Positions 1 to 61,350 are shown, counted from the stretch's first letter. The stretch is 64,000 bases of DNA from an uncultured Gammaproteobacteria bacterium (GCA_964397195.1 CAYNGY010000002.1:180012-244011); one strand, 5' to 3'. A program made the numbers and translations. The notes: generated from the letters alone by a model not told the origin.

Positions 1-3000
1 ATCAGCAGCGAGAATTATCAATTCCGGCGGTGGTACGCTCACGTTTTCCGGCGCCCCATCCGGCGCATTCAACTTCGTGGTTGGTGGCAGTGGGAACACG
101 ACGTTTTCAACCGCCTTTCCAAATGCTGCGGCGACGATTACGAAATGGGGTGCTGGAACTATGACCATCACCGGAACCAACCTCAACACCGGATTAGTTC
201 AAGTGAACGCCGGCACGCTCAAGTACGCCGCCACCACGACACTCGCGGCGCCAAACCTGATCGTAAATGGTGGAACATTTGATTTCAATGGGAATACTGA
301 CACGATTGGGACAGTCACGATGCGGAGTGGGACGATTACCGACTCGAATGGCACGCCGGGCGCTTTGACCGGCGCGACGGCGTATGAGCTCTATTCGGGG
401 ACGATAAGTGGAGTGCTGACTGGTGGTGGTGTTCCGCTGAACAAACGTACGGGCGGGACAGTCACGGTCACAAAATCACAGTCCTATACAAACTTAACGA
501 CTGTCCTAGCGGGAACGTTGCAATATGGTGCAAGCAACATCATTGCTGATGCGGCTGCGATCACGGTAAATGGAGGGACGCTCGATGTTCAGTCATATGC
601 TGACACGCTCGCGACGGTGACGTTAACGAACGGGTATATTATCGGCGGCGGAACATTAACCGGATCTGCGTATAACGTGATGAGTGGTAGTATCAGCGCG
701 ATCCTAGCCGGTGCGGTTAATCTGACGAAGACAACAGGCGGGACCGTTACCCTGTCTGGGACAAACACCTTCTCTGGGATTACAACCATTAGCGGTGGCA
801 CACTCAGCGTCGGGTCAATCGGAAACGGCTTATCGGCTGGAAACTTAGGCGCGGCCTCAAATGCTGCCGCGAACATCGTCTTCAATACGGGGACGGGAAC
901 GTTAGCCTACACCGGTGGTAGCGCTTCAACCGACCGCAACATCACCACCACGACAGGGATCACGATGCAAATCGACGTGACGAACCCGGCGGCGGTCTTG
1001 ACGTGGTCCGGGGCAACGACGGCGACGACTGCACCGTACACGAAAATCGGTCCCGGTACGCTTATTCTCTCCGGATCCAATCTTCACACTGGATTAAACA
1101 CCGTGCTGGCTGGGACACTGAAACTCGGCGCTGCAAACGTACTAGTGACCGGGGGGTTAACAGTTACGAACGGAACGTTTGATCTGAATAATTTTTCTGA
1201 TAGCTTAGGGGCGATTACGATTTCTAAGGATGGTCAAATTATTGATTCTGTCGGAACAACGGCAATTCTGACCACGTCGGCGGCCGGGGTGTACCAAAGC
1301 GGCACGATCAGCGCTAGAATCACCGGTTCTTCGGCCTCGGCTTTTACCAAGTCGACTTCCGATCGCGTCATTCTTTCCGGCAATAATACGCACACCAGCA
1401 CGGCAGTGACGTTGAGCGCCGGCGCGTTAAACCTACAACACAGTAATGCGCTCGGTATCTCGACGACGGCACTGCTCGTCACGGAGACTTCCGGAGCGGT
1501 TGTTGAAGTCCAGAACACGGTCACGATTCCGAGCAACAAAACATTTAATATCAGCGGGACGGGTGTTAACCTGGGTGGGGCAATCGAGAATGTGGCTGAT
1601 TCGAATACGTTGCAGGGGACAATTACTCTTGGTGCATCGAATACCCGAATTAATTCAAATCTTGGCACGCTGACCATCAGCGGTAATATCGCCGGCAATG
1701 CTCTTAATGTCGTCTATGGTGGAGCGGGAAATATTGCCCAGAATGGCACCATTGGCACGACCTCTGGGACACTGACGAAAGATGGAACGGGGATACTATA
1801 CCTACCGAACGCAAACACATATACGGGTCTGACGACAATAAATGCTGGTATTATTGATATTCAAAACGCGACATCACTCGGTACAACCGCAAACGGGACC
1901 GTGGTCAACAGTGGGGCCACGTTACGATCGTCTGTTTTCGTGACTGTCGGCGTCGAAGCCTTGACCTTAAACGGTACGGGGGTGAGTAATGTTGGTGCGC
2001 TGCAAAGCTACGTTGAAGCCGTGACCTGGCAGGGTGCCGTTACATTAGCAAGTAATGCTTCGATCGGTGTCAACGATTCGCCGGCTTCCATTACTGGAAC
2101 TATTATCGGTTCTGGGTCGAACGGATTAACGAAAGTGGGATCGGGTTCACTGACGGTTTCGACGACGACGCTCGGCGGGGACCTGACCATCTCAGCCGGG
2201 ACGCTCGTCGCTTCGGGCTCGAGCGTTATCAGTGTTGGCGGGAGTTGGTCAAATAGTGGGACCTTTACGGCCAATAGCTCGACTGTTAGTCTGACTTCAA
2301 CCACCTCGGCTACGATTACCGGCAACACCACGTTCAACAATTTCTCCGTGACCGGTATTGGCGCGGCGAAAACGATCAGCTTCGTCCACGGTTCAACGAC
2401 GACAGTGAGCGGGACCTGGACGGTCAATGGCGGTGCGGTTGGGACACGGATTGTCCTGACGCGTGACAACACGTCGAACTGGAATGTGAACCCCGCGACG
2501 GCCGCTCTTGATTATGTCGATATTTCGTACGTGACAAACCAAGGATCGTACTTCTGTGCGACGCATTCAGTTACGGCGAACGGCGGTAACGCAAACATTG
2601 GTGTGACCAGTGGGACGGCTTGTGGGGTGACCGTCTCCGGCTTCATTTATACGAACGACGCGTCGAGCGCATTAAATTGTACGGTCGGTGGAACACGCAC
2701 TGTGGCGGTGAAAGTGAATGGATCCGGATCGTTTACTGGGGCCTGTTCAAGTAGCTCAGGAGATTTCACAGTGAGTGCGGTGCCAATCACGGCGGCTGGC
2801 GATGTGTTGACCGTGTTCATATCGGGCGCGACCGAGAAAGCGGCGACTGTCACTATCGCGGCCGACAATACGTCAGATATCACAAATATCCCGCTCCGAG
2901 TTAGTCGGTTGGTGGTGACGCATGAGAGTGCCGGGCCAATCACGAACCATGCCACGACCGGGATTGGGCGGTACGACAAAGACGATGATGCGACGAACCT

Positions 3001-6000
3001 GTTCTTTACGGCCAACTCGAATAACCTCGTCGTCGACGCCGGCTATAAGCTCATGGTCAATTCCGGGAAAACCTATACGCCGGGTGGGAATGTGACGACC
3101 GGACCTTCTACCAACGCGGCCACGGTGGACGGTGATGTGAATATTCCGGCTACGTCGACATTGAACCTCGGCACCAATACATTGTCTGTCGGTGGGCATC
3201 TGGTGAACGCCGGGACATTAAATAGTTCGGCTGGGTCGGCGATTGTTTTCACCAGTACCGCATCGGGAACGATGACGATTACCGGCGGCGGTGCGACGAT
3301 TTATGATCTAACACTGAACAATGCGAGCGGGCACTGGACAAACTCGGGGAATATCACGATCAACGGCAATTTCAATTTAACGGCCGGTGAATTTATTCAG
3401 GCGAATAGCACGACGATAACTGTCAACGGAACTGGTTTTACCTTAGCGAGTGGTTCAACATGGACGAAGGCGACATCGGGCGGCAATCTGATCCTTGAAA
3501 ACGGATCGAACCTCTCGTTTACGGATAATACGTCGCCGAAACAAAATCTCGGAGCGGTTCAAATCGGCGCCAGCCCCGGAACGACAACGTTGACGACAGA
3601 TATGAGTGCGACCTCGGTCACCATTCCGAACGGCGATACCTTTAACACAAAGGGGTATGACGTGACGACGACGGACTTCTTCGATTGCCAAGGTACTTGT
3701 ATCTTGAACTTAACCGATACCGGCCCGAGTAATGAAGGCGACGGGACGGTGCTTGATGTCGGCGGGGATTTCTCGATGTCGGATACCGCGACGTTTACGG
3801 CGGCGACGAGTATCTTGTTCATGAATAGCACGGCCGCCGCAAATTCGAATCGAACATGGATTACCGGCGGGAAGACGTACAACCATGTCGAATTAAAGAA
3901 TGCTGGGACATCTTTAAGCACCATCGAACCGTCTGGTGATGTTGATGTCAATGGCGATTTTACCATAACGGATGGGTACGTTGATTTCGGTGCGAACCCG
4001 CCAGTAACGGTGACGACGGCCGGGAATGTGACTATTGTGGTCGGGGCAACGGTCGTTGCACCGGACTCGTGGACCTTCGATGGCTCGGGGACAAAAACGT
4101 GGACAGATGGGACATCGGGTGGCGGTCAAAACCTCGGTGCGGTCGCCATTAATGGGAGTAGTAAAACCGTTAACCTTGGATCAGACGCGAAAGCGACAAC
4201 CGTAACCATTGCGGGGAGTCAAACACTGGGACTCGCCTCATCGGGGTATACGTTAACCATCACCGGATCTGGGACGGCTGGCTCGCGCCCATTCCAGAAT
4301 AATGGCACGCTCAACGAGGGGACGGACTCGACAGTCAAATATACCGGTACGGCGACGACGGATCTGTTCGACGAGACCTACTACCATTTGACGCTCGCCC
4401 CGGCTTCCGGGTCGCCGACGTTTAACATGGGGCCGGACGGCGTTTCGGGTTTCACGGTGACGGGGACATTGACCGTTGGCGACGCGACGCATGCGGTCAC
4501 CCTTGATACGAACTTTGACGATCAGCAGTACCTCAACGACGTCGTTATAGCTAATGCCGCAACATGGAATACGAATGCCGTTAATGGTCAGAGCATGTCG
4601 GGCAGTCTCGTCATGAACGGCACATTAACGATTAATGACGTTCTTGGGTTTACCGCGGCCACCCTCGGGCACACGATTTCTGGTAGTACCCTCAACTCGA
4701 CCGGGGCGTTGACGGCGGTTGTGTTTGATGGTGTCGGCGGAGGCTGGACCATTCAAAACGATACGGCATTTAGTAGTTTTAACATTATTGGCGGTTCGGT
4801 CATTCAAGGGCCAAATGTGAATATCACGGTTGATGGAGCCTGGGCGATGGCTTCAGGTACGACGTTTACCAAAGCTTCGGGGTCCGGGACGGTGACCTTT
4901 ATTGGGACGAGCGCGACCACCTTTACCGACAGCACGGCCAGTAAGCAAAATATTGGCGATGTGTTTATCACAAAAACGCATGGTACGCCGAGTAATAATA
5001 AAGTCACCTTAGCCTCTTCAATGCTCGCGGATACGGTCACCGTCAGCGCGAGTAATACACTTGATCTGGCGTCTGGCGGGTATACGCTGACGGTGGCAAA
5101 CGTCGGATCCTCGGCTGATCCTTTAACGGTGACCGGCACGTTGACGGCTTCCGGCAGTTCAACTGTGGCGTTAACCGCGACGAATAGCGGGGGAAGCGTG
5201 AACATTCCTACCACGACGTACTATGCCTTAGGTCTCGGGACGACCGCCGATTCGACGGCCGAAACCTACGTCTTGTCTGGGAATACGACGGTCAGCACTG
5301 TCTTGACGGTTGGGAATGCGTCCTCAGGAGCCGCCGATGCGTTTGATGCTTCGTCGCGGACGCTGACATTGCCAGGCGGCGGTACGCCTTTTGTGCTGAC
5401 TAGCCAAGGGACCTTTACAGCTTCGTCATCAACCGTGAATTATACCGGCGGACCATCGACTGTCACGGTCGTCGGCGCGACATATAATAATCTTGGGGTT
5501 GGGACGACGGTTGATATTACGACGGGCGTTATATATCAACTCGCCGCGAACACGACGGTGAGTGGAGTTCTGACCGTCGGAAATACTGGATCCACGAACA
5601 TCGATACCCTCGACGGCTCGTCAAGAACCTTAACGCTTTCCGGGTCCGGGACGCCGTTTGTCTTGACCTCAAAAGGGGCCTTCGCGCTCGGTACCTCGAC
5701 TGTCCTGTATAGTGGGACGTCGGCTACCACTATTGCGGCCACGCAATATTATAGTCTGACGACTGGGGTGAATGATGGGAATACGGTCACCTATACTCTC
5801 GATACTACTGCTGTTTCAAATACCTGTGCGACCGGGTCGACTGGGACGTATACTCAGGCATGTGGCGGGACATTGGCGATTACGACGGGTGATACGCTGA
5901 CGATCACCGGTGTCAACTTGTCCCTTTCGGCGGGCGGTACCCTTGTGTTGGATGGGACGATGGACGGAACTGGTACCTTCACCTATTTCTCAACGACGGA

Positions 6001-9000
6001 GTTCCCAAGCTCGGGCACGGTTTCGGTGGCGACTATCTACATGAACCTTTATTATAATGACGTAACGTTGAGTCCGCGGACATATGGCGGAGACGTCCTG
6101 GCCATTTCGTTTACTGGTTCAAATCGGACGCTCTATTTTGGGGCGGTATCTGAGGCCGGATCGCTCACGATTGGGGGTAGCAAGCGTTTGTTACTATACG
6201 CACAAAGTACCGGAAATATCACGCTTGATAACACTCGGAATAATTGGAACGTCACGATAGGAACCGATCTTCAAACACCGGGGAGCGGGGGCGGAACGGA
6301 AACTATTCTGGCTGGTTCCGGCACGTGGACTGCGAGCGGAAACGTGACGTTTACCAACGGGATATTTACCGCTGGTTCGAGTACGTTGACGATGAACGGT
6401 ACATCAAAAACGTTGACCTCGGCCGGAAACGCGCTCAATAATTTCAATCAGACCGGTGGGACGGTGACGATGTCTGGTGCGACTACCGTCAATAACAACT
6501 TTACCATTACCAGCGGGACGTTGACGGCGCCGAGCGCGGCAAACCTGAGTGTTGGCGGCGACTTCAATAATGCGGGAACCTTCACCCATAACTCGGGGAC
6601 GGTCATCATGACCGGGACGAGCAAAAATATTACCGGCGGCTCGGCCACAACCTTCAACAACCTGCAGATTTCCGGGACGACTGGCATTGATGCGGCTGGG
6701 AGTGATGCGACCGTGGCTGGGACGTTGACGGTCGATTCGTCAAAAATTTTGACAATTAATACCGGCCGAGTGGTCACTCACACAGGTACGACCGACGTGG
6801 CAAATTCTGGAACGATACAGGGTGCCGGGACATTACGCTTTACGAGCTCTTCGACCGGTGGGCCTGGAACCGGCGGGGCTATCAACTCGATTGTTCGATT
6901 TGATGCGAGCGGCGCTAGTATCCCGACGGCGGTCGTCGATGCGCGGACATATGGTGGTGACCTCGAATACTATTCGAATGTGGCCGCGGTGCGTACGATC
7001 ACCCCGGCAAGTACGACTCACACGGTGAGCGGGAATTTGAAGATCATAACCGGTGCCAGTCAGACGTCCTCGTTTACCGTCGCGGCAAATACAAACAATC
7101 CGACGTTCACGATTGCTGGCAACCTGAGTTATACGAAGGGCGCTTCGGCCACGCCGGCTGTGACCAGTGGGTCCGGGACGTGGACGGTAAGCGGCGACGC
7201 GACCTTTACCAATGGCACATATACGCCATCAACGAACAATACGTTCGTGATGGATGGATCAGGGAAGACTGTAGCCAGTACGGTCAGTTTTTATAAATTT
7301 ACGAGCAACGGCACAATTACATCTACCGGGAATGTTAGTGTGGCAAATATTCTGACGCTTCAATCCGGTAAGAGTCTGACTGTTTCGGGGACCTTGAACT
7401 GCTCCAATGCGAGCACGATCGTTATGACCGGGGCGACGCTTGATGGCGCCGGTACCCTTATATACCAAAAAGGCGGGACGGGGTTCCCGACCGATGGGAC
7501 GTTAAATATCGCGACGACGATGTTTGCGCCGACAACGGGGGCCGTAACCATCCCAAGTCGAACGTATGGTGGTAGCGTAGTATGTGAAGATGGATTGTCT
7601 GCCACCACTTGCACATTGACGGGGACGCCGATTATTACCGGCAATCTTTCGTTGTACGATGTCAGCTTGGGGGCGTCGTTTGATGGTACGCCGACATCAG
7701 TTACGATCGGCGGGAATTTCTCAGGGATCAATAATGGTGGCGGGAATGGATTGACCATGGCTGGGACGTGGACGGTCAGTGGCGACTTCGACATGTCGAG
7801 CCTGTCGAGTTTTAGCGCCGGGACGAGCTCGTTGGTCATGAATGGTGCCACCAAAACGCTGACCACGAACGGGAATAGTTTGTATGATTTTAGTGTCTCG
7901 GGTGGGAGTGTTTCCGTGGCTGGCACAAATGCGACGGTGTCTCATGATTTGACGGTGAGTAGCGGGGTGCTGACCGCTCCGACGGGAACGCTTTCCGTCG
8001 GTCGTAATTTTGCCCATTCGGGCGGAACATTTACACACAATAACGGGACTGTCGCTTTAACGACGAGTACGGCGGCGGCGGTATCGGGGAGTACTACATT
8101 TAAGAATCTCTCGGTGACCGGGATTGGGGCGGCTAAAACTATCACCTTCACGGCCAGCTCGACCCAAACGGTGACGGGGACGTGGACGGTGACCGGCGCA
8201 TCAGGGCAGATTGTGACCTTGCAATCGAGCTCGTCACCCACCAAGTGGAATATTAACCCGACGGCGGCGAGCGTCAGTTACGCGGCTGTGACCGACTCCG
8301 ATAACCAAGGCGTTTCGTTCTGCGCCACGTTCTCAACGGGAAGTAGTAATACCGGTTGGTCAATCGGTGCTGGGGCGAGCTGTGGTATTACGGTGTCGGG
8401 GACAGTCTATCAGTCGTCGAATGAAGGGTCAGGATATGGATGTAACAGCGACAACCTGACCATGTATGTTGCGGTTAATGGTGATGTCACTCCGGATTCT
8501 GGATTATGCAATTCCGCAGGCGGGACATTCACCATCACCGGTGTGACCGACCCGGGCGCGGCGAATATTCCCATTGCGGTCTACATCGATACTGGGGAAT
8601 CGGTGAAGGGGACGACCGTCACGCTGTCGAGCGCCAGCGGAGCCGACATTTCAGGGCTTTCGTTGATGCTCGATCGACTGGTCGTGAGTCAACAGAGCGG
8701 GACGGCCACGACGAATTCTCACTTAAACACGGCCGATAACGGAAATGCCGGTATTCGATATGCCGTGTCCGGCGGTGCGTTAACCGTTGACGCGGGGATG
8801 GAGCTCCATGTCCTGAGCGGAAAAACATTCACACCGGGCGGCGCAGTAACCACAACGGCGACTGGAACAGCGGCGGGAGCGGCCGGCGATGTGCATATCG
8901 CCGGGACGTTAACGATGGGTACGAACGCGCTCAATGTCGGTGGCGACTATACAAATGCCGGTACATTTAATAAAACGAACACACAGACGACAACCTTTGC

Positions 9001-11920: not shown

Positions 11921-11956
11921 TATCGTTGACAGCTATAGGAAAAGGGGGTAAGAACC

Positions 11957-13552
11957 ATGCGTATGAAGCATTTGTGGTCGCGTCGACGAGTCATCTCTTG
12001 GGCATCCCGTGGCCTTTTTTGTGGGCTGTTGATGGTGATGTTTTTTTCTGGGGCACAGGTAGTGCAGGCCCAAATGACCTTGATCGACGAGGCTGACGAC
12101 GGCGTCTTGGTCAGTGGCGGCATCACCTTCGATCTTCGTCAGTACCGATTCTGTCGCGACCCGATCACTTGTGAACTTCCGGATCGGCTTTCGAACATCG
12201 ATCTCTTCCTGCGCCGACACAAAGTTGGTCTGTATACACCTGATGCCCGTCCATTAGAGCCGGCGGCGGAAGTGGTGCGATTAAATATCGTCCCGCAGGC
12301 ACTCGGATATCTGAATTTGTACCAGACAACTCATGTGTGGCGATACCGTCAGGAAGCTGTCGATCGTTTGCAGTATCTTCTACACATTGGACCAGATGTC
12401 TACGGTCGGGGCGTGCGCTCCGGGATGACTGGGTACGCATTTCTCATGGGGTATCGGTATACCGGAAACGCGGCTTACAAAAAAGCGGCCCAGCGTATCG
12501 CTGAAGAGTGTCTGACACAGCCGCTCGGGGATCGATGGATGAATGGGGGATTGATGTGTGGGTTTCACTTAGCGGGCATGTATCGACTGACCGGGGACGT
12601 TCGGTATCAAACGGAGGCTCGTAAGATTGTCGAGCGAACGTCAGTTTGGCAGTACCCAAATGGCGCTTGGCCACATCAGCCCCATCCGGATGGCGGAAAT
12701 ACGAGCTATACGGCGTGGATGGTGACCGAGCTATTATTGATGCATGAGGATGATCCCGGGTACGAGCTTGGTGATTTATTGCTGGCAAAATCCATCAACT
12801 TTTTGGCGCAACGTGTAAACACCGACGGGAGTTTGAATTATAGTGATGCCGCCGGTGACTACTACCTTGATCCGGGCGGCTTGGAATCACGTTTCTGGAC
12901 CGGAGAACTAGCCAATATTGCCCTCGATTTGTCGGCTGGTGGTCGTCGCGATGCCGCGAACAAGGTTTTGCGAACACTCTTTTCCTATGAAATGACAGGG
13001 AAAAATCGTGGCGGATACCCGGATAAATACAATCTATCGAACACGACGACTATTTGGGAAACAGGGAGCCCCTCAGTTGTTCGGACGTCGATGATATTTT
13101 GGTATCTGTCGATGATTGATCAATTCGATCGCCCGTGCCGGTCTGGCGGCACGCCGACGTGTACTATTTCGTCGCCATCGTGTAGTCCGTTGTATTCCGG
13201 TATGGGTCAATGTCCGCAAGGGATAACAGGGAACCGTACCTGCCTCGCTGGTACTTACACGTCGTGTTTTGAACTAGCTACGACTCAGCTTTCTGAGCCG
13301 CTCATTTGCCAGGTCGATTCGTATTGTGAGAATGATCGTCAGTGGGGAGCGTGTTATTATACGTGTTATCGATCTGGGAAACAGCTCTGTCTGAATGGGG
13401 TTTGTGCAGGGATCTGCTACGCGGTACAGGAAGGGGAGGTGCAATGCGATTCTGAGTGTTACCAAGATCAGTCCTGTCCGGCTGGGGCGGACGCTCTACC
13501 GCCTGGACTGTCCGTGGACGACCAGAAGTTGCGGCGCCAGCCTTCCCGATAG
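11957..13552 (+). CDS. Secreted protein of unknown function. It has an N-terminal signal or transmembrane segment, an alpha-helical repeat-rich core, and a Cys-rich C-terminal module of about 120 aa with roughly 25 Cys.
   Basis: The ATG at 11957 is preceded by a GGGGG Shine-Dalgarno sequence. A hydrophobic N-terminus (LFCGLLMVMFFSGAQVVQA) is present. The C-terminus has dense cysteines (CRSGGTPTCTISSPSCSPLYSGMGQCPQG...CYAVQEGEVQCDSECYQDQSCP). No motif allows a confident family assignment. Confidence 0.55.
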   Translation: MRMKHLWSRRRVISWASRGLFCGLLMVMFFSGAQVVQAQMTLIDEADDGVLVSGGITFDLRQYRFCRDPITCELPDRLSNIDLFLRRHKVGLYTPDARPLEPAAEVVRLNIVPQALGYLNLYQTTHVWRYRQEAVDRLQYLLHIGPDVYGRGVRSGMTGYAFLMGYRYTGNAAYKKAAQRIAEECLTQPLGDRWMNGGLMCGFHLAGMYRLTGDVRYQTEARKIVERTSVWQYPNGAWPHQPHPDGGNTSYTAWMVTELLLMHEDDPGYELGDLLLAKSINFLAQRVNTDGSLNYSDAAGDYYLDPGGLESRFWTGELANIALDLSAGGRRDAANKVLRTLFSYEMTGKNRGGYPDKYNLSNTTTIWETGSPSVVRTSMIFWYLSMIDQFDRPCRSGGTPTCTISSPSCSPLYSGMGQCPQGITGNRTCLAGTYTSCFELATTQLSEPLICQVDSYCENDRQWGACYYTCYRSGKQLCLNGVCAGICYAVQEGEVQCDSECYQDQSCPAGADALPPGLSVDDQKLRRQPSR

Positions 13553-13592
13553 CGATCCGTAGTCAGATTAGGTGGGTGGCGGTGTCCCTATT

Positions 13593-13621
13593 TTGACCGA
13601 GTTGTAAAAATGTGCTACAAT
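13593..13621 (+). promoter_or_regulatory. Sigma70-like promoter: -35 TTGACC, a 17-nt spacer, and an extended -10 TGcTACAAT.
   Basis: TTGACC sits at 13593-13598 and TACAAT at 13616-13621, with TG two nt upstream of the -10. It lies about 50 nt upstream of the 13673 start. Confidence 0.5.
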
Positions 13622-13672
13622 AAGGTGAGTAAATATCAAATAGTAGCCTCTTGGCTAAGGTTGGCCAAATAT

Positions 13673-14728
13673 ATGATTAAAAGACATTCCGTTCGTTCCC
13701 TTTCCCGTCGTAGCGCCGCGCTATTAGCCATTTTTGGCTTGATGGTAGGGATGAATATCGGGTCAATTCAGGAGGCCACAGCGGCCCAGATTACTCCGGC
13801 GAAGGTGACCATGTCCAACCTTAACGCGAGTGGTACTGGTACCTTGGCTTTTGCCTTTACCACCATCACCTCGTTATCGGCGACCAATACCATTAAATTA
13901 CAGTTTGATCCAACGGGAGATCTCTTTACACTGGCATCCGTAGCCGATACGGATTTTTCAGCCGTCTCTGGAATGACGATTGTTAATGCTTGTGGTGGCG
14001 GGTCTGATGAAGTAACGGTGACGTCGGATACGTCGGCGCCTGATGAGAGCTATACGTTGACGGTTTGTTCGGGTGATACCGTTGGTGCCGGAGCCAAGGC
14101 ATTTACGATCGCCACCGCGAAAGTGACGAATCCAGCAACACCAGCCGCGTATAAGATCGCCATTACTACCACATCAGACTCGGCGACGATCGCCATTCCG
14201 GTCATTACCAATGATGTGGTCAATGTGTCGGCGACTGTCGACCCATCCATTACGTTCAGCATTTCTGATGTGACCGTTGGGTTCGGAACGTTGGCTTCGG
14301 GTGCTGTCCGCTACGCCACCGGTGATACGCTCGGTGGGACGACCGAAACGACCGCTGCGCACACGATGTCGGCCGGGACAAACGCCGTGTCGGGGTTAGC
14401 GGTCACTTACTCTGGCGGCCTGCTCACGAGCGGTGGTAATACGATCAGTGCGGCAACGAGCGTCACCCCGCCGGGGAACACCGCGGCCGAGCAGTTTGCT
14501 ATTGCAGTTGACGATAATGGAACGGCCTTTACGATTGCCGCGGGCTACGATCAGGCGACACCGATCTATTCGTACGTCGGTACGGGCACGACGACGGCAT
14601 TATTTTCGTCGGCGGGGCCGCTGTCCTCGACCAACGTTGATGTTCATTATCTGGCGAACATTGCCGCCAATACCGAAGCCGGTAACTACTCGACCAACAT
14701 CACCTACATCGCTACGGCTACTTACTAG
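13673..14728 (+). CDS. Secreted protein whose C-terminal ~170 aa is homologous to the C-terminus of the giant protein. This is a WxL-like surface-binding domain with a C-terminal motif YSTNITYIA.
   Basis: The start was chosen at MIKRHS... (RBS AAGG, 13 nt upstream) rather than at the ORF-track start, which overlaps the promoter. A signal peptide is present (LLAIFGLMVGMNIGSIQEATA). The C-terminal domain aligns with giant-protein residues around 3775-3947. Confidence 0.7.
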   Translation: MIKRHSVRSLSRRSAALLAIFGLMVGMNIGSIQEATAAQITPAKVTMSNLNASGTGTLAFAFTTITSLSATNTIKLQFDPTGDLFTLASVADTDFSAVSGMTIVNACGGGSDEVTVTSDTSAPDESYTLTVCSGDTVGAGAKAFTIATAKVTNPATPAAYKIAITTTSDSATIAIPVITNDVVNVSATVDPSITFSISDVTVGFGTLASGAVRYATGDTLGGTTETTAAHTMSAGTNAVSGLAVTYSGGLLTSGGNTISAATSVTPPGNTAAEQFAIAVDDNGTAFTIAAGYDQATPIYSYVGTGTTTALFSSAGPLSSTNVDVHYLANIAANTEAGNYSTNITYIATATY

Positions 14729-14758
14729 GTCGGCAGCAGCGGTACTGGATTTACGTCC

Positions 14759-15784
14759 ATGTCAAAACAAATAGCACGTTCCCTCCTGATTGCCGCGGTT
14801 GTCCTCGCTGGACTGTCGGTTCACCATTCAGCGCAGGCGCTATCCTTAGTGCCACCGAGTTTGGAGTATAGCGTTAAGCCGGGAGATGTTGTTGCCGATC
14901 AGGTAAAGCTCTATAACGAACAGGATCAGTCCATGACGGTCACACCGTCGTCGGCGAATTTTGGTGCAAAAGACGAAACCGGCCAGCCGGACTTTACCTT
15001 TGATGCGCCATCGGCCGATTTGGCGTCGTGGATTACGCTTGATACATCGCCTCTGACGATTAAACCGAGCGATCGTGCCACAATTGCCTTCACCATCACG
15101 GTGCCAAAGAATGCCGAACCGGGCGGGCACTATGCCGGAATTTTCTTTGCCACCGGTGCGCCAAAAGAGGGACAGGTCGCGGTTCAATCAAAAATTGGGA
15201 CGTTGATTATTCTCAGTGTGGCAGGGAATGAGAAAGAATTAGCGTCGATTGTCGAAACCGGTGTCAATAATGCACAAAAAACACTTAGTCGCTTGCCGGT
15301 ATCATTTTTCGCGAGAATTCGGAATACCGGAAATGTCCATGTTCGCCCCGAGGGATCGGTGACGATTAAGAATATGTTCGGGCGAGTTTCGGCCGTGATT
15401 CCGGTGAACGATGTGCGCGGCGCGGTGTTACCGAAGAGTATTCGTCGTTTTGAGATGAGCTGGTCGAAAGGTGCGGATGTCTGTGATCAAGAACCCGATG
15501 GGACCTCAAAGCCGTGCGGTTTTTTTCAGCAAGTTGGCGCGGAGTGGCGGAACTTCGGATTTGGCACATACACTGCCTCGTTTGATCTGACCTATGGGAA
15601 AACATCGAAGGCGCTGAGTGACAGCGTTTCCTTCATGATCATTCCGTGGCGACTCTTGTTAGTTGAGTTTCTGGCCTTGGTGTTGCTAGTCGTGGTGTTC
15701 CTGTTTGGCATTCGTCGTTATAATCGCGCGATCATCCGGAGCGCGCAATCAAGGAAGAACATCCCGCCGGTTAAGCGCATGTAG
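14759..15784 (+). CDS. Surface protein with a signal peptide, a DUF916/DUF3324-like beta-sandwich region and a C-terminal transmembrane anchor. It resembles the CscA-type partner found in WxL loci.
   Basis: A signal peptide is present (LLIAAVVLAGLSVHHSAQA). The core YSVKPGDVVADQVKLYNEQDQSMTVTP resembles the DUF916 motif F.L.VKPGQ.Q.L.V.V.N. The C-terminal hydrophobic helix WRLLLVEFLALVLLVVVFLFGI is followed by a basic tail. Confidence 0.45.
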   Translation: MSKQIARSLLIAAVVLAGLSVHHSAQALSLVPPSLEYSVKPGDVVADQVKLYNEQDQSMTVTPSSANFGAKDETGQPDFTFDAPSADLASWITLDTSPLTIKPSDRATIAFTITVPKNAEPGGHYAGIFFATGAPKEGQVAVQSKIGTLIILSVAGNEKELASIVETGVNNAQKTLSRLPVSFFARIRNTGNVHVRPEGSVTIKNMFGRVSAVIPVNDVRGAVLPKSIRRFEMSWSKGADVCDQEPDGTSKPCGFFQQVGAEWRNFGFGTYTASFDLTYGKTSKALSDSVSFMIIPWRLLLVEFLALVLLVVVFLFGIRRYNRAIIRSAQSRKNIPPVKRM

Positions 15785-15787
15785 CCC

Positions 15788-16660
15788 ATGTTCGGCTCTT
15801 GGGCGCAGTTTGTTCATCGGGCGCTCCTCGGGAGCGTCGCTTTGGTTTTAGGGATGTGGCCGTATTCGGTGGCGGCGCAAACCGTGACCGGCTCGGCGTC
15901 GGTTGGAGTGAGTGCAGTCGTAATCGACCAGAACGTCGTGCCAACAAACCCGAGCGTCGAGTTTCATGGTGTTGTTTCGCCCAACGCGACGGTCACCATT
16001 TCTCGGGACGGGACGGTCGTGTCGTCACAGCTTGCTTCCAGCACAGCTGATTTTGTCGCCGTGTTGCTCGACCAGCCGGCTGGACCGCAAAACTATCTCA
16101 TCTCTGCGGTTGATACGAGCGGCGCGGCCTTAGCGCCGATCTCGTTTTCGCTAACGCTGGTGGTCAATACGAATACCATCATCACCGGCGTTTTCTTGGG
16201 TCCGTCAATTCGGATTGATAAATCAGCCGTCAAACTCGGCCAATATGTCACCGTAGCTGGTATGACCGCTCCGAGCAGTGATGTGAGCGTTACCATCCAT
16301 TCGACCCAGGCTAAGAGTTTTACGGTCACGGCCGACGGATCCGGGCGGTGGTCGAAGTTGGTGAACACGGATGATGTGGGTGTTGGAACGCATACCGCCC
16401 AAGCACGGGCCGTGCTCGGTGGGAGTCAAATTTCAGCGGTGAGCGCAGTAGTGTCGTTCGCGGTTAATCCGCTCGAACAGTGTGATGGAAAAAAGACGGC
16501 CGATGTGAATTGTGATGGACATGTCGATTTAACTGACTTTAGTATCTTGCTGTATTTCTGGCAACAGACAAATCCACGGAATAGTCGGGTCGATATTAAC
16601 GCCGATGGCCGGGTTGATGTGATTGATTTTAGTATCATGCTCTACCAATGGACAAATTAA
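15788..16660 (+). CDS. Secreted protein with Ig-like beta domains and a C-terminal type-I dockerin module of two Ca-binding repeats.
   Basis: The C-terminus reads DVNCDGHVDLTDFSILLYFWQQ...VDINADGRVDVIDFSIMLYQW. That is a duplicated DxNxDGxVDxxDfsilL dockerin signature. An N-terminal signal peptide is present. Confidence 0.75.
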   Translation: MFGSWAQFVHRALLGSVALVLGMWPYSVAAQTVTGSASVGVSAVVIDQNVVPTNPSVEFHGVVSPNATVTISRDGTVVSSQLASSTADFVAVLLDQPAGPQNYLISAVDTSGAALAPISFSLTLVVNTNTIITGVFLGPSIRIDKSAVKLGQYVTVAGMTAPSSDVSVTIHSTQAKSFTVTADGSGRWSKLVNTDDVGVGTHTAQARAVLGGSQISAVSAVVSFAVNPLEQCDGKKTADVNCDGHVDLTDFSILLYFWQQTNPRNSRVDINADGRVDVIDFSIMLYQWTN

Positions 16661-17766
16661 GAAACATGCTCGTAGTCGCTCCGGTGTTGGCGTTGAGTTT
16701 TTTAGCCGCGCCGGCGCGGGCCGTGGAGCCATCCATACAATTCGTCCCGCAAGTTGGCTTTACGCGACCGGGCGAGACGCTGACGGTTGATGTCCGACTG
16801 ACGAACCTAGATCAGCCAATTAACGCCGTTGACCTGTCAATCGGTTATCCAACCGATGTATTGCGACTTGATCGGATCGATCGTGAACGGTCAGCGTTCA
16901 CCCTATGGCCGGAGGAACCGCAAATTCAGTCAGCGTCGGGCGTGGCGCATGTTGTAGGCGGTCTGCCGAACGGTCTCTATGCGCATGACGCCCGGGTGGT
17001 GACGCTCCGATTTACAACGCGTCATGCTGGCCAAGGCGCCTTTCGCATCGTGGCCGGTAAGGTCTACCTCAATGATGGACTTGGTACGGCAGTGCCTATT
17101 GTCGCCGAACAGACAGCGGTTACGGTACAGAGTGAATTTCTCGATCATATTCAGCTGACGTCGTCGCATCATCCGAATGATGGCGCATGGAGTGCGGAAC
17201 GGACCGTCGATATTTCATGGGTCGCCGAGGCCGGACGACAATACAGTTACATTTTTGATGCGGACGGAACCATCGCTCCCGATACCCACCTGGATGAAAT
17301 CAAACCGTTGCTCTTTACGGATCTTGCCGACGGTCGATATTCATTCGCTATTATTTCGCGTGGCGCTGACGGTCTATGGTCTCCAGTTACCCAGCGTTGG
17401 TTTCTGATTGACGGCACTGCCCCGGAGGTACCAATCCTGGTCCACCCCGATCCGACGACCGTGAACGGGGCGAATCTTCTGGCCTGGTCAGCTGTTGATC
17501 GAATGTCGGGCATTGTCCGATCCGAACTGTACGTCGGTGGAAAAAAACAGGGCGATGTTGAGAGTCCCGTTCGATTACAATCTCGTTGGGCCGGTCAGAC
17601 GCTGACCATCCGGGCGTACGACGCGGCGGGGAATAGCCAAGCAGCGTCTTGGGTCATGCCGGGTATGCGCCAACCGAGCTGGGTAACGCTTGGGGCTGGC
17701 GGTGGTGGCCTATTACTTCTCCTGTTCGTGCTGGTCATCATATTCCGACAACGACGTCGAACATGA
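16648..17766 (+). CDS. Membrane-anchored protein with a signal peptide, a cohesin-like domain, an FN3/Ig-like domain and a C-terminal transmembrane helix. This is paralog 1 of 3.
   Basis: The N-terminal domain VEPSIQFVPQVGFTRPGETLTVDVRLTNLDQPINAVDLSIGYPTDVLRL...VTLRFTTRHAGQGAFRI fits the cohesin strand pattern. A C-terminal GGGGLLLLLFVLVIIF transmembrane segment is followed by RQRRRT. The start overlaps the upstream stop. Confidence 0.6.
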   Translation: MDKLRNMLVVAPVLALSFLAAPARAVEPSIQFVPQVGFTRPGETLTVDVRLTNLDQPINAVDLSIGYPTDVLRLDRIDRERSAFTLWPEEPQIQSASGVAHVVGGLPNGLYAHDARVVTLRFTTRHAGQGAFRIVAGKVYLNDGLGTAVPIVAEQTAVTVQSEFLDHIQLTSSHHPNDGAWSAERTVDISWVAEAGRQYSYIFDADGTIAPDTHLDEIKPLLFTDLADGRYSFAIISRGADGLWSPVTQRWFLIDGTAPEVPILVHPDPTTVNGANLLAWSAVDRMSGIVRSELYVGGKKQGDVESPVRLQSRWAGQTLTIRAYDAAGNSQAASWVMPGMRQPSWVTLGAGGGGLLLLLFVLVIIFRQRRRT

Positions 17767-17782
17767 TATACTCTGTTCAAAT

Positions 17783-19153
17783 ATGCACCGTTTTTCTCGA
17801 GTAGTGCGTGGATTAACATCGGGGCTTGCTGCGGCCTTTTTGACAGTCGTTTTTTTGTCGCGTCCGACGGCCGCCGCGGCAGCTGGGGCGTCGTTAAAAT
17901 TGTCGCCGAGTAGCGGGACCTATGAGGTCGGGTCGTTGGTGGATATTTCGATGATGGTTGATACTGGCGGCGAGTCAATAAATGCAGTCGCGGCCACGTT
18001 GCGTTTTCCGGCCGATAAACTTCAGGTTGTAAATCCGGCGGCGAGCACGTCGTTCATTTCTATTTGGGTCAATGCGCCTACCTATTCAAATACCGACGGA
18101 ACCGTTTCGTTCCAAGGCGGTTTGCCGAATCCGGGTATCAAAACGAGCGCCGGCGTCATTAGTACGATTTCCTTCCGCGTCAAGGTGCCGGGCACGGCGA
18201 CCCTTAAGTTCGATCCGAACGCAAGCATTTTACGCAACGACGGACAGGGGACAAATATTCTGACCTCTACAAGCTCGGCTGACCTGACACTCAAGGTGCC
18301 GCCGCCGGCGGGACCAGTTGTCAGTAGTCCGACGCACAGCGATCAAAATGCTTGGTACAATAATGGGCAAGTTCAGTTTACTTGGGAGGCGATTGATGGC
18401 GCGGTAGGGTACAGCTATGTGTTTGATCAGTCGCCAAAAACAATTCCGAATGAGACGATCAACTCGGCTCTTCACGCGGTGAGCGTCAAAGCGGCCAATG
18501 ATGGGATTTGGTTTTTTCACATCCGCTCGAAAACTGATTCATGGGGCGGAGTGACAACATTTCCGGTTCAGATCGACACGACGGCTCCGGCCACCTTCGG
18601 TCCGGTCATCGACCAAGATCCCTTAACCACCGAAGACTCCGGGATAGTACGATTTGCCACGACTGATGCGGCCTCCGGGATTGATCACTACGAAGTGAAA
18701 ACGGTAGCGCAGTCAGGCGGATCAACGGCGCAGAATACGCTGTTCGTTGAAGCGAGTAGTCCATTTTCACTACCGAAACTGTCGGCCGGAACGTATACGG
18801 TGATTGTCCGGGCCATTGACCGGGCCGGAAATGCCTACGATGGGACTCGCTCTGTGCAGGTTGTGAGCGGTGGTGTACCATTCTATTCGCGGGTTCCATT
18901 CCTTCGGGATCCGGCGGTTGCTAACGCCGTCCTGATCGTCCTCGGTGTTATTACCACGACGCTCCTCTCGAGTCTCTTGCTCCGTCGAGTGCGGTTACGT
19001 GCAACCTTCCATCACGACTTGGAGATGCTCGAACACGATGCGCAGAAGAAAGCGGCAGTGCTTCAGCGGGAATTAGATGAGCTTCGTCGCGCGCAGCAGA
19101 TGTTCCCGGCGCCGCCCCAAAACCAACCACATGACCAACACCCAACGCCTTAG
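17783..19153 (+). CDS. Membrane-anchored cohesin-like-domain protein, paralog 2 of 3, with an FN3-like domain, a transmembrane helix and a coiled-coil cytoplasmic tail.
   Basis: The start was chosen at MHRFSRVV, just after the previous stop at 17766. The ORF-track start at 17690 overlaps the previous gene. The cohesin-like block is LKLSPSSGTYEVGSLVDISMMVDTGGESINAVAATLRFPADKLQVV...ISFRVKVPGTATLKF. The transmembrane segment is AVLIVLGVITTTLLSSLLL. The tail is ELDELRRAQQ. Confidence 0.6.
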   Translation: MHRFSRVVRGLTSGLAAAFLTVVFLSRPTAAAAAGASLKLSPSSGTYEVGSLVDISMMVDTGGESINAVAATLRFPADKLQVVNPAASTSFISIWVNAPTYSNTDGTVSFQGGLPNPGIKTSAGVISTISFRVKVPGTATLKFDPNASILRNDGQGTNILTSTSSADLTLKVPPPAGPVVSSPTHSDQNAWYNNGQVQFTWEAIDGAVGYSYVFDQSPKTIPNETINSALHAVSVKAANDGIWFFHIRSKTDSWGGVTTFPVQIDTTAPATFGPVIDQDPLTTEDSGIVRFATTDAASGIDHYEVKTVAQSGGSTAQNTLFVEASSPFSLPKLSAGTYTVIVRAIDRAGNAYDGTRSVQVVSGGVPFYSRVPFLRDPAVANAVLIVLGVITTTLLSSLLLRRVRLRATFHHDLEMLEHDAQKKAAVLQRELDELRRAQQMFPAPPQNQPHDQHPTP

Positions 19154-20813
19154 TTTTATCGGGTTCCTCGCGGTCGGCTTGTTCAGTCTGCCACTGTTTG
19201 CGCAGGCCGCGTCGCTCGGGCTGTCGCCATCGTCGACCTCGGTCACGGTCGGGAAATCGTTTAGTGTGACCGCGCGAGTGAATGCTGGCGGTGAAGCCAT
19301 TAACGCCGCTGAGGGGACGATCATGTATCCGACCCAGCTCCTGAAATTAACCAGCGTCTCGAAGTCCGGGTCTATTTTTACCTTCTGGGCGCTTGAACCA
19401 CGAGCGAGTTCGTCGGGGCAGGTCAGCTTCATTGGCGGTCTGCCGCATCCGGGGTATACGGGCAGTGCCGGGACGATTGTCCGTATGACCTTCACTGCTT
19501 CGGCGACCGGCACGGCCACAATTTCGTATGGTGGCGGAAAAGTGCTCGCTGATGATGGGAATGGGACAAATATTTTATCGAGTCAGGGATCAGCCACGGT
19601 GCATATCACGGAGCCAGGATCAGCGACACCGTCGACACCCGCCGAGCCGCCGTCGACACCACGTCCAATTCCGGGTCTTTCCTCGACGACGCACCCGAAA
19701 CAGACGGAGTGGCTATCAAAGACAGCCGGGACGTTGCAAATTTCTAAGCCAAGTGGTTCGACCGGGTTCAGTTTTGTCATTGACCAGAAAGCATCGACCG
19801 CGCCTGATGAGAGTGTTGATACAACGGCTGGTAGTATTGATGTGCCATTAGCCAGCGATGGGGTGTGGTACGTCCATGTTCGGGCCAAGTACGCTACTGG
19901 GTGGAGCAATACCACATCGTACATCTTCCGACGAGATACGGCGGCCCCGCAGCCGTTTACCGTGACCGTCGAACAAGACCGTGGGGTGACCGATCCGACG
20001 CCAACCATTGTCTTTTCGGCGCACGATGTTTCAAGTGGTATCGCGGGGTATACGGTTTCGGTGGATGGCGGCGCCCCAGTTGCGGCGGTGAGTCCATATC
20101 AGCTCTCGTCACTTCTCCCCGGAGCACATCGGGTGCTGGTGGTTGCAGTCGACCAGGCTGGGTTAGCGCAAACCGCGTCGGCGGATGTATTACTGACCGG
20201 CTACCCGGTGCCGAGCATTGACTCGCTGACAACCCCAATCATGTTGATGGAGAGTTTCTCCATGAATGGGCTGGCGTTAGCCGGTGATATTGTGATTATT
20301 GCCGTGGACGGACAAACCGTTGGTCAAACGGTGGCGAAGCGCGCCGACACGACTGATGAAGATCAGGTACTCGTCCGTGTGCCCTGGACCTACACATCGA
20401 CCATGTTGTTGCGACCGGGCACCCACACGGTGACCGTCACGGCCGTTGGGTCGGATGGCCAGCGGAGCGTGGCCACTGATCCGCGATCGCTCCACGTGGT
20501 TGGAGGAACAATGATGTTTCGGGGTCGACCCGTGGCGACGATCGCGCTGGCTCCGGCCATTGGGATTGGTATTATCCTGGTTCTCTTTTTGAACGCGGCC
20601 GTCTTCGCAAAACTCTGGTGGAGTGTGCGAAAAGTGGTTCAACGCGATGATCGGGTAGAGGATGAGCTCGAGGGTCTGCGCCAGCGGATTCGTCACGATC
20701 GACTGACCACCACGGAACTGGATGAAAAAATCCAATTTATTGAAGCCGATCTTGCCGGACGCGTGCGGAAAGCACGACGACGTACGGGGAGTCGTCGCGG
20801 ACAGAGCGTATGA
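19131..20813 (+). CDS. Membrane-anchored cohesin-like-domain protein, paralog 3 of 3, with a Pro/Thr linker, two Ig/FN3-like domains, a transmembrane helix and a coiled-coil tail.
   Basis: The start was chosen at MTNTQRLSF (ATG 19131), which overlaps the upstream stop at 19151-19153. The cohesin-like block is LGLSPSSTSVTVGKSFSVTARVNAGGEAINAAEGTIMYPTQLLKL...MTFTASATGTATISYG. The transmembrane segment is IALAPAIGIGIILVLFLNAAVF. The tail is charged (VEDELEGLRQRIRHDRL). Confidence 0.6.
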   Translation: MTNTQRLSFIGFLAVGLFSLPLFAQAASLGLSPSSTSVTVGKSFSVTARVNAGGEAINAAEGTIMYPTQLLKLTSVSKSGSIFTFWALEPRASSSGQVSFIGGLPHPGYTGSAGTIVRMTFTASATGTATISYGGGKVLADDGNGTNILSSQGSATVHITEPGSATPSTPAEPPSTPRPIPGLSSTTHPKQTEWLSKTAGTLQISKPSGSTGFSFVIDQKASTAPDESVDTTAGSIDVPLASDGVWYVHVRAKYATGWSNTTSYIFRRDTAAPQPFTVTVEQDRGVTDPTPTIVFSAHDVSSGIAGYTVSVDGGAPVAAVSPYQLSSLLPGAHRVLVVAVDQAGLAQTASADVLLTGYPVPSIDSLTTPIMLMESFSMNGLALAGDIVIIAVDGQTVGQTVAKRADTTDEDQVLVRVPWTYTSTMLLRPGTHTVTVTAVGSDGQRSVATDPRSLHVVGGTMMFRGRPVATIALAPAIGIGIILVLFLNAAVFAKLWWSVRKVVQRDDRVEDELEGLRQRIRHDRLTTTELDEKIQFIEADLAGRVRKARRRTGSRRGQSV

Positions 20814-21520
20814 ATTCGGTTTGGATCGTAACGCCGACGTATAACGAGCGGGAGAATATTCGGACACATATATCCGGGCTACGGGCGACAGTGCCGCAGG
20901 CGACGCTATTGGTAGTGGATGATTCTTCGCCTGATGGAACGGGGGCGGTGGTTGACGAGCTGGCGACTGGTGACGCGCAAGTGCGCGTTCTTCATCGCCA
21001 ACAGAAGGCCGGGCTCGGTCTGGCCTATATGGAAGGATTACGGATGGCGCTAGCGGCGGGGGCGACGCAGATCGTCCATTTAGATGCAGACGGCTCACAC
21101 CCGATTGATCTGATCCCGTCACTGCTCGCAGCGCTTGAGACCGCCGATTTGGCGATCGGGTCGCGTTACGTTCAGGGCGGGTCGATGCATATAGATATTT
21201 TCCGTCGGCAGGTGAGCAACCTAGGAAACATATATATCCGGTCGCTCTTAGGCCGAGCGATTCATGATTGGAGCACTGGGTTTAAGGCCTGGCGTCGGGC
21301 GTCGCTTGAAGGGGTCCTAGCCGTGCCCCCGCGGGCCCATGGGTATGCCTGGTTGATGGAGACGAGTTGGTTAGCGGTGCGAGCCGGGGCGCGGGTGACC
21401 GAAATACCGTTGGTTTTTCAGTCCCGCCAACGCGGCGAGTCGAAATTTTCCCTGACTATTGCCAAGGAAGACCTTCAAGTGGCCTGGCGTCTCGCGCGGG
21501 GTCGGACCCTTGCGGAATGA
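20810..21520 (+). CDS. GT2-family glycosyltransferase, of the dolichyl/polyprenyl-phosphate mannose (or glucose) synthase type.
   Basis: The sequence shows VTPTYNERENI, a DDSSPDGT motif, and DADGSH (the DxD region). The ATGA start/stop overlap with the upstream gene suggests translational coupling. Confidence 0.75.
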   Translation: MNSVWIVTPTYNERENIRTHISGLRATVPQATLLVVDDSSPDGTGAVVDELATGDAQVRVLHRQQKAGLGLAYMEGLRMALAAGATQIVHLDADGSHPIDLIPSLLAALETADLAIGSRYVQGGSMHIDIFRRQVSNLGNIYIRSLLGRAIHDWSTGFKAWRRASLEGVLAVPPRAHGYAWLMETSWLAVRAGARVTEIPLVFQSRQRGESKFSLTIAKEDLQVAWRLARGRTLAE

Positions 21521-21577: not shown

Positions 21578-21654
21578 GGGTGATTAGCTCAGTTGGTTAG
21601 AGCGCGCCGTTCACATCGGCGAGGTCTCAGGTTCAAATCCTGAATCACCCACCA
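21578..21654 (+). tRNA. tRNA-Val (anticodon CAC), with an encoded CCA end.
   Basis: The sequence is GGGTGATTAGCTCAGTTGGTTAGAGCGCGCCGTTCACATCGGCGAGGTCTCAGGTTCAAATCCTGAATCACCCACCA. The acceptor stem is GGGTGAT/ATCACCC. The anticodon loop is TTCACAT. The T-loop is GGTTCAAATCC. Confidence 0.85.
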
Positions 21655-61274: not shown

Positions 61275-61350
61275 GGGCTCATAGTGTAGCGGTTAACACG
61301 TCTCCCTGTCACGGAGAAGATCGGGGGTTCGAATCCCCCTGGGCCCGCCA
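61275..61350 (+). tRNA. tRNA-Asp (anticodon GTC), with an encoded CCA end.
   Basis: The sequence is GGGCTCATAGTGTAGCGGTTAACACGTCTCCCTGTCACGGAGAAGATCGGGGGTTCGAATCCCCCTGGGCCCGCCA. The acceptor stem is GGGCTCA/TGGGCCC with one G·U pair. The anticodon loop is CTGTCAC. It is flanked by a 14-bp inverted repeat (61258-61271 / 61351-61364). Confidence 0.8.

Follow-up and report, generated by a model that had tools for sequence, protein, structure and literature searches.

A candidate Pam-type pilus locus with a putative dockerin-cohesin anchor from the Patescibacteria

The 64 000-nucleotide stretch of DNA analysed here (GCA_964397195.1, CAYNGY010000002.1:180012-244011; hereafter the window), deposited as belonging to an uncultured Gammaproteobacteria bacterium, carries in its first 20.8 kb eight co-oriented open reading frames (ORFs) on the + strand, and this locus is examined as a candidate for a pilus system of the Pam type. 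All eight genes encode secreted or membrane proteins, as a first-pass annotation made from the sequence had stated. Signal-peptide-like segments are found at the start of all the products, and C-terminal hydrophobic helices are present in those of genes 4, 6, 7 and 8. The gaps between neighbouring genes, counted from gene 1 to the family 2 glycosyltransferase (GT2) gene that follows gene 8, are 36, 120, 30, 3, -13, 16, -23 and -4 nt. The gene positions given earlier were retained, save that gene 1 has no stop in 2..76 and must therefore extend past the left edge of the window, and that the starts of genes 3, 7 and 8 were moved to 13673, 17783 and 19131. The latter two were taken from gene calls on the Logan contig L001, which carries identical genes, while the start of gene 3 is probably the ATG at 13673, behind a promoter-like site. 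The features are collected in Table 1. For comparison, one genome per species was scanned for relatives of gene 4, and 80 loci were fetched (the related loci below).

Table 1. Positions of the genes, domains and sites of the locus, counted from the first nucleotide of the window
Feature	Position	Strand	Basis or remark
Gene 1, giant PATR-repeat surface protein, 5'-truncated by the window	1..11920	+	PATR above cutoff
Gene 1 end, Pam pilin C-terminal (acceptor) domain	11519..11917	+	NF058581 CPR_Pam_pilin_C
Gene 2, secreted protein of 531 aa with Cys-rich tail	11957..13552	+	weak (alpha/alpha)6-type matches
Sigma-70-like promoter match, TTGACC-17-TACAAT with TG	13593..13621	+	5' of pilin gene 3; consensus match only
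Gene 3, putative Pam-type shaft pilin	13610..14728 (probable start 13673)	+	NF058581
Gene 3 linker/putative donor strand, PVITNDVVNVSATVDP	14198..14245	+	between N-terminal beta-sandwich and acceptor domain
Gene 3 C-terminal acceptor domain	14246..14725	+	NF058581
Gene 4, two-domain chaperone-like protein, WxLIP homolog, C-terminal transmembrane (TM) helix	14759..15784	+	fold and profile
Gene 5, putative pilus terminator/base adaptor	15788..16660	+	signal peptide, two beta-rich modules, dockerin
Gene 5 donor-strand-like segment, SVGVSAVVID	15899..15928	+	family alignment
Gene 5 dockerin	16490..16657	+	Dockerin_1, two canonical Ca loops
Gene 6, cohesin-like domain (16732-17118), Ig-like domains, C-terminal TM helix	16648..17766	+	family hidden Markov model (HMM)
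Gene 7, cohesin-like domain (17885-18298), Ig-like domains, TM helix, cytoplasmic tail	17783..19153	+	
Gene 8, cohesin-like domain (19206-19607), Ig-like domains, TM helix, cytoplasmic tail	19131..20813	+	gene 7 paralog
GT2 glycosyltransferase	20810..21520	+	PF00535, 87 bits; overlaps gene 8 stop by 4 nt

The Pam pilus was described in 2026 from cryo-electron microscopy (cryo-EM) of filaments of Ca. Mycosynbacter amalyticus, and has been reported mainly in Saccharimonadia and Microgenomatia; its proposed assembly is usher-less and employs membrane-anchored PapD-like chaperones (PamC and PamD), a tip protein (PamT) and, as terminator, the membrane-anchored PamR (Troman et al., bioRxiv 10.64898/2026.03.03.709456). 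The product of gene 3 matched the NCBIfam model NF058581, 'Pam pilus system pilin subunit', with 57.0 bits (cutoff 55), and the same model was matched by all of the aligned gene 3 homologs (53/53). Its AlphaFold2 (AF2) model, with a predicted local distance difference test score (pLDDT) of 86.6, is composed of two beta domains, the connector at residues 201-210 (linker) being of low confidence. It is this connecting region that is most conserved in the family, the alignment consensus between the two domains reading DDxVxVTATVDPSITFSISD, and the plan of an N-terminal domain, a conserved linker and a C-terminal domain fits what cryo-EM showed for PamA and PamB. The gene 3 family profile found no real match in the PDB, and single-sequence PDB searches with genes 2, 3, 4 and 8 returned nothing useful.

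The C-terminal domains of genes 1 and 3 had been annotated as WxL-like. That a large and a small protein of the locus share this domain was borne out by their alignment (42% identity, E 3e-34), but the WxL assignment was not. Pfam WxL (PF13731) was matched at E<=1 by none of the 53 gene 3 family members, the C-terminal domain of gene 3 has no Trp, and W-x-L motifs are absent from the client domains. Homology between the Pam C-terminal domain and the WxL domain was also considered, using 13 WxL proteins from plasmid-borne WxL clusters, and was rejected, as hhalign assigned it a probability of 1-2% (P 0.045) and the alignment was collinear in greedy mode only. On the sequence evidence, what had been called 'WxL-like' in genes 1 and 3 is the C-terminal domain of Pam pilins. 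Because the shared domain is that of Pam pilins and gene 3 has a conserved donor linker, the part of the locus made up of genes 1, 3 and 4 is best read as specifying a donor-strand-exchange pilus, and not a peptidoglycan-docking complex.

Gene 1 encodes a giant protein, the call on the identical Logan contig L001 extending to at least 5,928 aa and being still cut there. Its PATR repeats scored above the cutoffs of both Pfam (54.4 vs 27) and TIGR02601 (55.2 vs 19.85), in agreement with the first-pass annotation, whose suggestion of a displayed adhesin is retained here in the form of a proposed tip. The last 133 residues matched NF058581 with 82.1 bits (cutoff 55, E 4e-23). Ahead of this acceptor domain there is no donor-strand (linker) motif, and the linker HMM matched gene 3 only within the window. 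The first position of the related loci is likewise held by giants ending in the same C-terminal domain, and in these the match to the pilin HMM begins past the linker, at HMM positions 198-202. The PamT equivalog model gave 48.6 bits, below its cutoff of 240. An acceptor domain without a donor strand points to a distal position, and gene 1 is thus proposed to encode the tip adhesin of the pilus.

Gene 4 had been annotated as a DUF916/DUF3324-type protein with a C-terminal TM anchor, and both profile and fold comparisons upheld this. The AF2 model (pLDDT 92.3) shows two beta-sandwiches and a C-terminal helix at 297-333, and the best solved structures retrieved with it by Foldseek were those of Enterococcus faecium WxLIP, in the entries 9i1y and 9i25 (E 1.6e-11; the latter titled 'bound to long WxL'). 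Behind these ranked chaperones of chaperone-usher systems, namely CsuC, CfaA, YadV, CupB2, Caf1M and DraB (E 1e-9 to 1e-7). The gene 4 family profile matched EfmWxLIP1 in the PDB (E 0.0075). When the family was aligned by hhalign with nine WxLIPs from plasmid-borne WxL clusters, the probability of homology was 98.1% (E 1.2e-13, 264 columns). It was 93.9% with the signal peptide and TM helix removed and 94.8% for the DUF916 domain alone, and the other Ig-like families of the locus, used as controls, gave at most 9%; the second domain (DUF3324), taken alone, was not significant (P 0.043). DUF916 (PF06030, WxLIP_PGBD) was matched by 29 of 51 gene 4 homologs, gene 4 itself scoring 24.3, below the Pfam cutoff of 27.3. 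Sequence profiles and predicted fold thus confirm gene 4 as a homolog of WxLIP (DUF916/DUF3324 with a TM helix), and in its predicted architecture and fold it also fits a PamC/PamD-like protein.

The dockerin of gene 5 is canonical, as first proposed, since it scored 38.3 bits against Dockerin_1 (PF00404; Pfam cutoff 22.9), and both of its Ca-binding F-hand loops, DVNCDGHVDLTD and DINADGRVDVID, are those of a type I dockerin. Directly after the signal peptide, members of the gene 5 family carry a segment xQVxVTATV(P/D), which shares an alignment column with the NDQVLVTATV linker of long-form gene 5 homologs. These long forms (about 440 aa, among them L010, L031, P0362, P0376 and P0381) consist of the pilin N-terminal domain and linker followed by the same Ig-Ig-dockerin arrangement, and their match to the pilin HMM extends from about position 10 up to 197-222, library representatives ending at about 197-200. 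The acceptor domain was never found in the gene 5 family. As a short linker HMM was not significant on single gene 5 proteins, a position-specific scoring matrix (PSSM) of the pilin linker was applied at the family level and used, together with the long-form homologs, in its place. The N-termini of the short gene 5 proteins scored far above those of other secreted families encoded in these loci (Mann-Whitney p=1e-14, for related sequences that do not form an independent sample), and 73% of the short proteins exceeded the 95th percentile of other ORFs. The gene 5 family therefore looks like a pilin that has lost its acceptor domain and gained a dockerin module in its place; with a donor motif and no acceptor, it could donate a strand but not accept one.

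Genes 6-8 had been described as three paralogous cohesin-like membrane proteins. They are mutually paralogous (E 1e-20 to 2e-55; gene 8 vs gene 7, 35% identity, E 2e-55), with the TM segment of gene 6 at residues 344-366, and their cohesin-like nature is supported at the level of the family, Pfam Cohesin being sub-threshold or absent when the proteins are taken singly. PF00963 gave 21.3 bits on gene 6 (E 3e-4, cutoff 24.1) and did not match genes 7 and 8. The family cohesin HMM recognised gene 6 with E 1.5e-12 and gene 8 with E 3.6e-31, Pfam Cohesin was matched by 34 of the 40 gene 7 homologs scanned (best 1e-10), and about half of the gene 7 homologs carry a precomputed PF00963 match. Furthermore, cohesins were the best PDB matches of the N-terminal-domain profile (A4), with 4ums_A matched over the full length at E 0.0025. 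Gene 7 encodes the most conserved protein of the locus, its homologs being 58-71% identical across Kerfeldbacteria-like genomes. The full-length gene 7 profile also weakly matched antibody heavy-chain variable (VH) domains in the PDB; these matches were dismissed as spurious. They arise from the middle domain (18380-18640), via DGvWyFHvRAK..WGG, and probably reflect convergent Ig-like features. The cytoplasmic tails that follow the TM helix in the products of genes 7 and 8 (19000-19150 and 20590-20810) are charged and coiled-coil-like, span about 60-75 aa and hint at an intracellular partner.

Relatives of gene 4 were found in at least 158 species-level genomes. The fetched loci belong, 80 out of 80, to Patescibacteria or to metagenome-assembled genomes (MAGs) labelled otherwise, the lineages represented being Kerfeld-, Falkow-, Uhr- and Buchananbacteria, Parcubacteria and Minisyncoccales. 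The closest relatives of the window locus are from Kerfeldbacteria. The synteny check suggested along with the first-pass annotation showed that gene order is kept in dozens of Patescibacteria genomes, which excludes a chance association of the eight genes. About 36 of the 80 loci share an order that begins with a giant bearing the Pam C-terminal domain, followed by one or two pilins, often a second chaperone, and the gene 4 homolog, and that continues through the dockerin protein and two to three cohesin-TM proteins to GT2 in some, signal peptidase and histidyl-tRNA synthetase (HisRS). Dockerin and cohesin genes recur as a conserved component in about 39 of the 80 loci, and cohesin-TM genes are adjacent in 33 of the 35 non-redundant loci with a dockerin gene, the other two stopping at a contig end. 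Six distant loci of other gene order (L043, L053, L054, L060, L067 and L075) have a protein with the pilin N-terminal domain and dockerin-like C-terminal repeats, followed directly by a cohesin-TM gene. The locus had been presented as a hybrid in which two docking systems were fused; a pilin-derived dockerin protein, and dockerin and cohesin genes that recur in so many of the related loci, speak against that description.

Three further observations were made on the related loci. Most of them carry two paralogous chaperone-like genes (about 307 and 333 aa) and often two pilins, the window having one of each; the paired chaperone-like genes, of which L003 9043-9978 is an example, recall PamC and PamD. 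In distant loci, the gene 4 homolog is followed at once by a protein of 1,100-1,200 aa, in which the pilin N-terminal domain and linker precede FnIII/CarboxypepD_reg-type domains and from which the acceptor domain is absent, and which may be another terminator or base subunit (L040, L041, L046-L048, L055, L056, L061, L063, L064, L068, L069, L074, L076-L078, L080 and L081). Those MAGs that contain a locus of this kind from the candidate phyla radiation (CPR) and are titled 'uncultured Gammaproteobacteria', 'Pirellulales' or 'FCPU426' (L009, L010, L017, L036 and others) are probably mislabelled or contaminated bins.

We consider it moderately probable that the locus specifies a single surface machine, namely a CPR donor-strand-exchange pilus of the Pam type, built without an usher and held by a dockerin-cohesin anchor. 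The basis of this model is the set of domain identities, homologies, predicted folds and conserved linkage described above, from which we infer strand exchange and polymerisation, the order of the subunits, the roles of tip and terminator, capping by the chaperone and the binding of dockerin to cohesin. All parts would be exported by Sec. Tethered by its C-terminal helix, the gene 4 protein would cap the open C-terminal domain of the subunits, in the manner of PapD, of PamC/PamD, and of WxLIP for its clients. The PATR adhesin of gene 1 (at least 5,900 aa), with an acceptor domain and no donor strand, would occupy the distal tip, and gene 3 pilins would be added below it, each linker strand entering the acceptor domain of the previous subunit. 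Polymerisation would be ended by gene 5, which has the donor-strand motif and, where the acceptor would be, two Ig-like modules and a dockerin, and the dockerin of this subunit would then bind the cohesin domains of the gene 6-8 membrane proteins, fastening the filament by a non-covalent link.

The likeness to the Pam pilus (NF058581, NF058579) lies in a pilin C-terminal domain family scoring above the NCBIfam cutoff, in two-domain pilins with a putative linker donor strand, in a putative membrane-anchored chaperone that is PapD-like by predicted fold, in the lack of an usher, in signal peptides on all parts, and in a CPR host. In contrast to the published system, the window locus is Kerfeldbacteria-like by its closest relatives, it has one pilin and one chaperone, it has no ATP-synthase neighbours, and its proposed tip is the giant PATR adhesin in place of the single-domain PamT. 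A PamR-type protein, RbmA-like and with its own TM helix, is also absent from the window, where a dockerin subunit and separate cohesin membrane proteins are found instead; no single protein of the locus has an N-terminal donor strand together with two FnIII domains and a TM helix. Gene 1, and gene 5 together with genes 6-8, would stand in for PamT and PamR.

Classical chaperone-usher pili (Pap/Fim, Csu, CFA/I, Caf1) have, as is proposed for the window locus, a chaperone of two Ig-like domains, incomplete Ig-like subunits completed by a donated strand, a tip adhesin with a pilin domain and no donor strand, and growth ended by a subunit unable to accept a strand, as in PapH. However, the window locus has no outer-membrane usher, none of the eight proteins having matched an usher family in the Pfam and NCBIfam scans, and its putative chaperone is tethered to the cytoplasmic membrane. 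Its putative donor strand is an inter-domain linker and not an N-terminal extension, and no sequence homology with these pili was detectable. With cohesin-dockerin systems it shares a canonical duplicated F-hand dockerin, a cohesin-like family that matches PF00963 and PDB cohesins, and a cell-anchored partner that carries the cohesin, but it lacks enzymes, and a pilus would be its cargo. Anchoring would be by a TM helix and not by an SLH domain or a sortase, and the window cohesins are sub-threshold when taken singly.

The WxL/Csc clusters of Lactobacillales and Listeria (Hassan et al. 2023, PMC10599100) are a further point of comparison by way of gene 4, which is homologous to WxLIP over DUF916 and collinear with it through the second domain and TM helix. 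In both systems, large and small secreted clients share a C-terminal domain of about 160 aa, and the strand of an Ig-like partner is predicted to insert into it. The resemblance to csc clusters proposed in the first-pass annotation therefore holds as a parallel to the published WxL clusters and for the DUF916 anchor; it is not supported for membership of the WxL domain family. The window client domains have neither of the two W-x-L motifs and are not significantly similar to WxL, the locus has no LPXTG CscD-like protein (no LPXTG-like motif occurs in genes 2-8), and DUF3324 is not detectable on its own in gene 4. WxL proteins, moreover, are thought to bind peptidoglycan and not to polymerise.

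Several observations weigh against the pilus model with its dockerin-cohesin anchor. For the Pam pilus, the assembly scheme proposed so far was itself derived in large part from AlphaFold predictions (Troman et al., bioRxiv 10.64898/2026.03.03.709456). No Pam model was matched in the NCBIfam scan of the gene 4 family, and fold searches with the whole gene 3 model singled out neither chaperone-usher pilins nor WxL. The linker-like motif in single gene 5 proteins is weak (HMM 2-8 bits, individually non-significant). In the window, three cohesins stand against one dockerin, and gene 7 may have another or an additional role because it is far more conserved than the pilus parts and adjoins housekeeping genes. 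These last points also favour the view that the locus comprises two surface systems independent of each other, the Pam genes (1, 3 and 4) and the dockerin and cohesin genes (5-8), made neighbours only by the conserved gene order of the lineage. In that case the cohesin proteins would display gene 5 at the cell surface, possibly along with further dockerin proteins, with no relation to the pilus. In many genomes the block is followed immediately by GT2, signal peptidase and HisRS, as would suit such an arrangement, and the cohesin-dockerin binding of the pilus model is itself a prediction. We nevertheless regard a separation into two systems as unlikely, given that the dockerin carrier is pilin-derived, its long forms having the pilin N-terminal domain and linker, and that the dockerin-cohesin pair recurs in the six Pam-like loci that have another gene order and no housekeeping neighbours.

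A surface complex of the WxL/Csc kind that does not polymerise would account for the homology of gene 4 to WxLIP, and a large client, a small client and one TM-anchored WxLIP fit the published definition of a WxL cluster. The strand of gene 4 would then hold genes 1 and 3, AF2 predicting in the WxL clusters that a DUF916 hairpin inserts into WxL (PMC10599100), and the cohesin-dockerin pair would be a second docking device. However, the domain shared by the clients is that of Pam pilins, which according to cryo-EM builds filaments in M. amalyticus, gene 3 keeps the conserved donor linker, and WxL motifs, a Pfam WxL match and an LPXTG partner are all missing, so that we judge this alternative to be quite improbable. 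As regards a minimal cellulosome-like scaffold for enzyme display, one dockerin and three cohesin-like modules are indeed present and gene 2 shows weak matches to polysaccharide-active (alpha/alpha)6 folds, but the sole dockerin protein has no catalytic domain, while gene 2 has no dockerin and is missing from most related loci. Nor are CPR genomes of this type known for polysaccharide degradation. As the locus contains no dockerin-bearing enzyme, this reading was rejected, and we hold it to be extremely unlikely.

Gene 2, annotated as a Cys-rich secreted protein, conforms to that description, with a secreted-looking product containing 21 Cys in total and a Cys-rich tail at its C-terminus. Its Pfam matches (Pec_lyase, GH76, GH127 and LanC) were all sub-threshold, and a PDB search gave no match. 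The gene sits between the tip adhesin gene and the pilin gene; homologs occur in just two other loci among the 80 (L011 and L030), and on this distribution it is classed as accessory, outside the core set. The promoter-like site upstream of the pilin gene was the top-scoring sigma-70-like match across 11.8-21.8 kb, and a scan for terminators gave a site count not above that of shuffled sequence. At the other end of the locus, the GT2 gene is kept 3' of the cohesin genes in many related loci and is probably co-transcribed with the locus. An extra density has been seen on PamA Ser356 (Troman et al., bioRxiv 10.64898/2026.03.03.709456), and GT2 might conceivably glycosylate the pilins. Further along the window, 26269-32514 encodes a 2,081-aa protein with an N-terminal T4SS_pilin domain and Big_5 Ig-like domains, syntenic with proteins of 1,890 aa in L002 and 3,314 aa in L003; this is a second large surface structure near the pilus locus. 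The window also contains two tRNA genes (21578-21651 and 61275-61347) and, on the minus strand, a tmRNA gene (63640-64000) cut by its right end.

The pilin family itself is already known from the Pam preprint and NCBIfam. The preprint makes no mention of WxL, DUF916, cohesin or dockerin (bioRxiv 10.64898/2026.03.03.709456), and searches of the literature on WxL with donor strand, and on cohesin or dockerin with Patescibacteria, found nothing relevant. Three features reported here are absent from the preprint and the searchable literature, namely the Kerfeldbacteria-type architecture with a giant putative tip adhesin, the putative dockerin terminator with cohesin anchors in place of PamR, and a chaperone-like protein homologous to WxLIP. 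Two wider propositions follow these features, and we offer them jointly as a possibility on the doubtful side of even. One is that Pam pili and the WxL/Csc clusters of Firmicutes may share an ancient usher-less ancestor. In that ancestor, secreted clients of large and small size would have ended in an open C-terminal domain of about 160 aa, which a membrane-tethered, WxLIP-type chaperone completed by inserting a strand. The other is that a large branch of the Patescibacteria may use a cohesin-dockerin pilus anchor, in which a pilin-derived subunit with its acceptor replaced by a dockerin ends the pilus and binds dedicated cohesin membrane proteins.

If correct, this would be the first cohesin-dockerin anchor of a pilus. 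Most CPR bacteria are epibionts that have not been cultured, and their attachment to the host is a central question. The Pam system has been known since 2026 from one Saccharibacteria-related organism, and the window locus would extend it to a different and large branch, with candidates for points that the preprint left open: the giant PATR adhesin as a host-binding tip, a means of stopping growth, and the binding of dockerin to cohesin as the tie between filament and cell. The homology of gene 4 to the WxLIPs of enterococci, lactobacilli and Listeria could, in turn, reframe how the WxL virulence and adhesion clusters work and, if the common origin is true, these clusters may also use donor-strand complementation or exchange.

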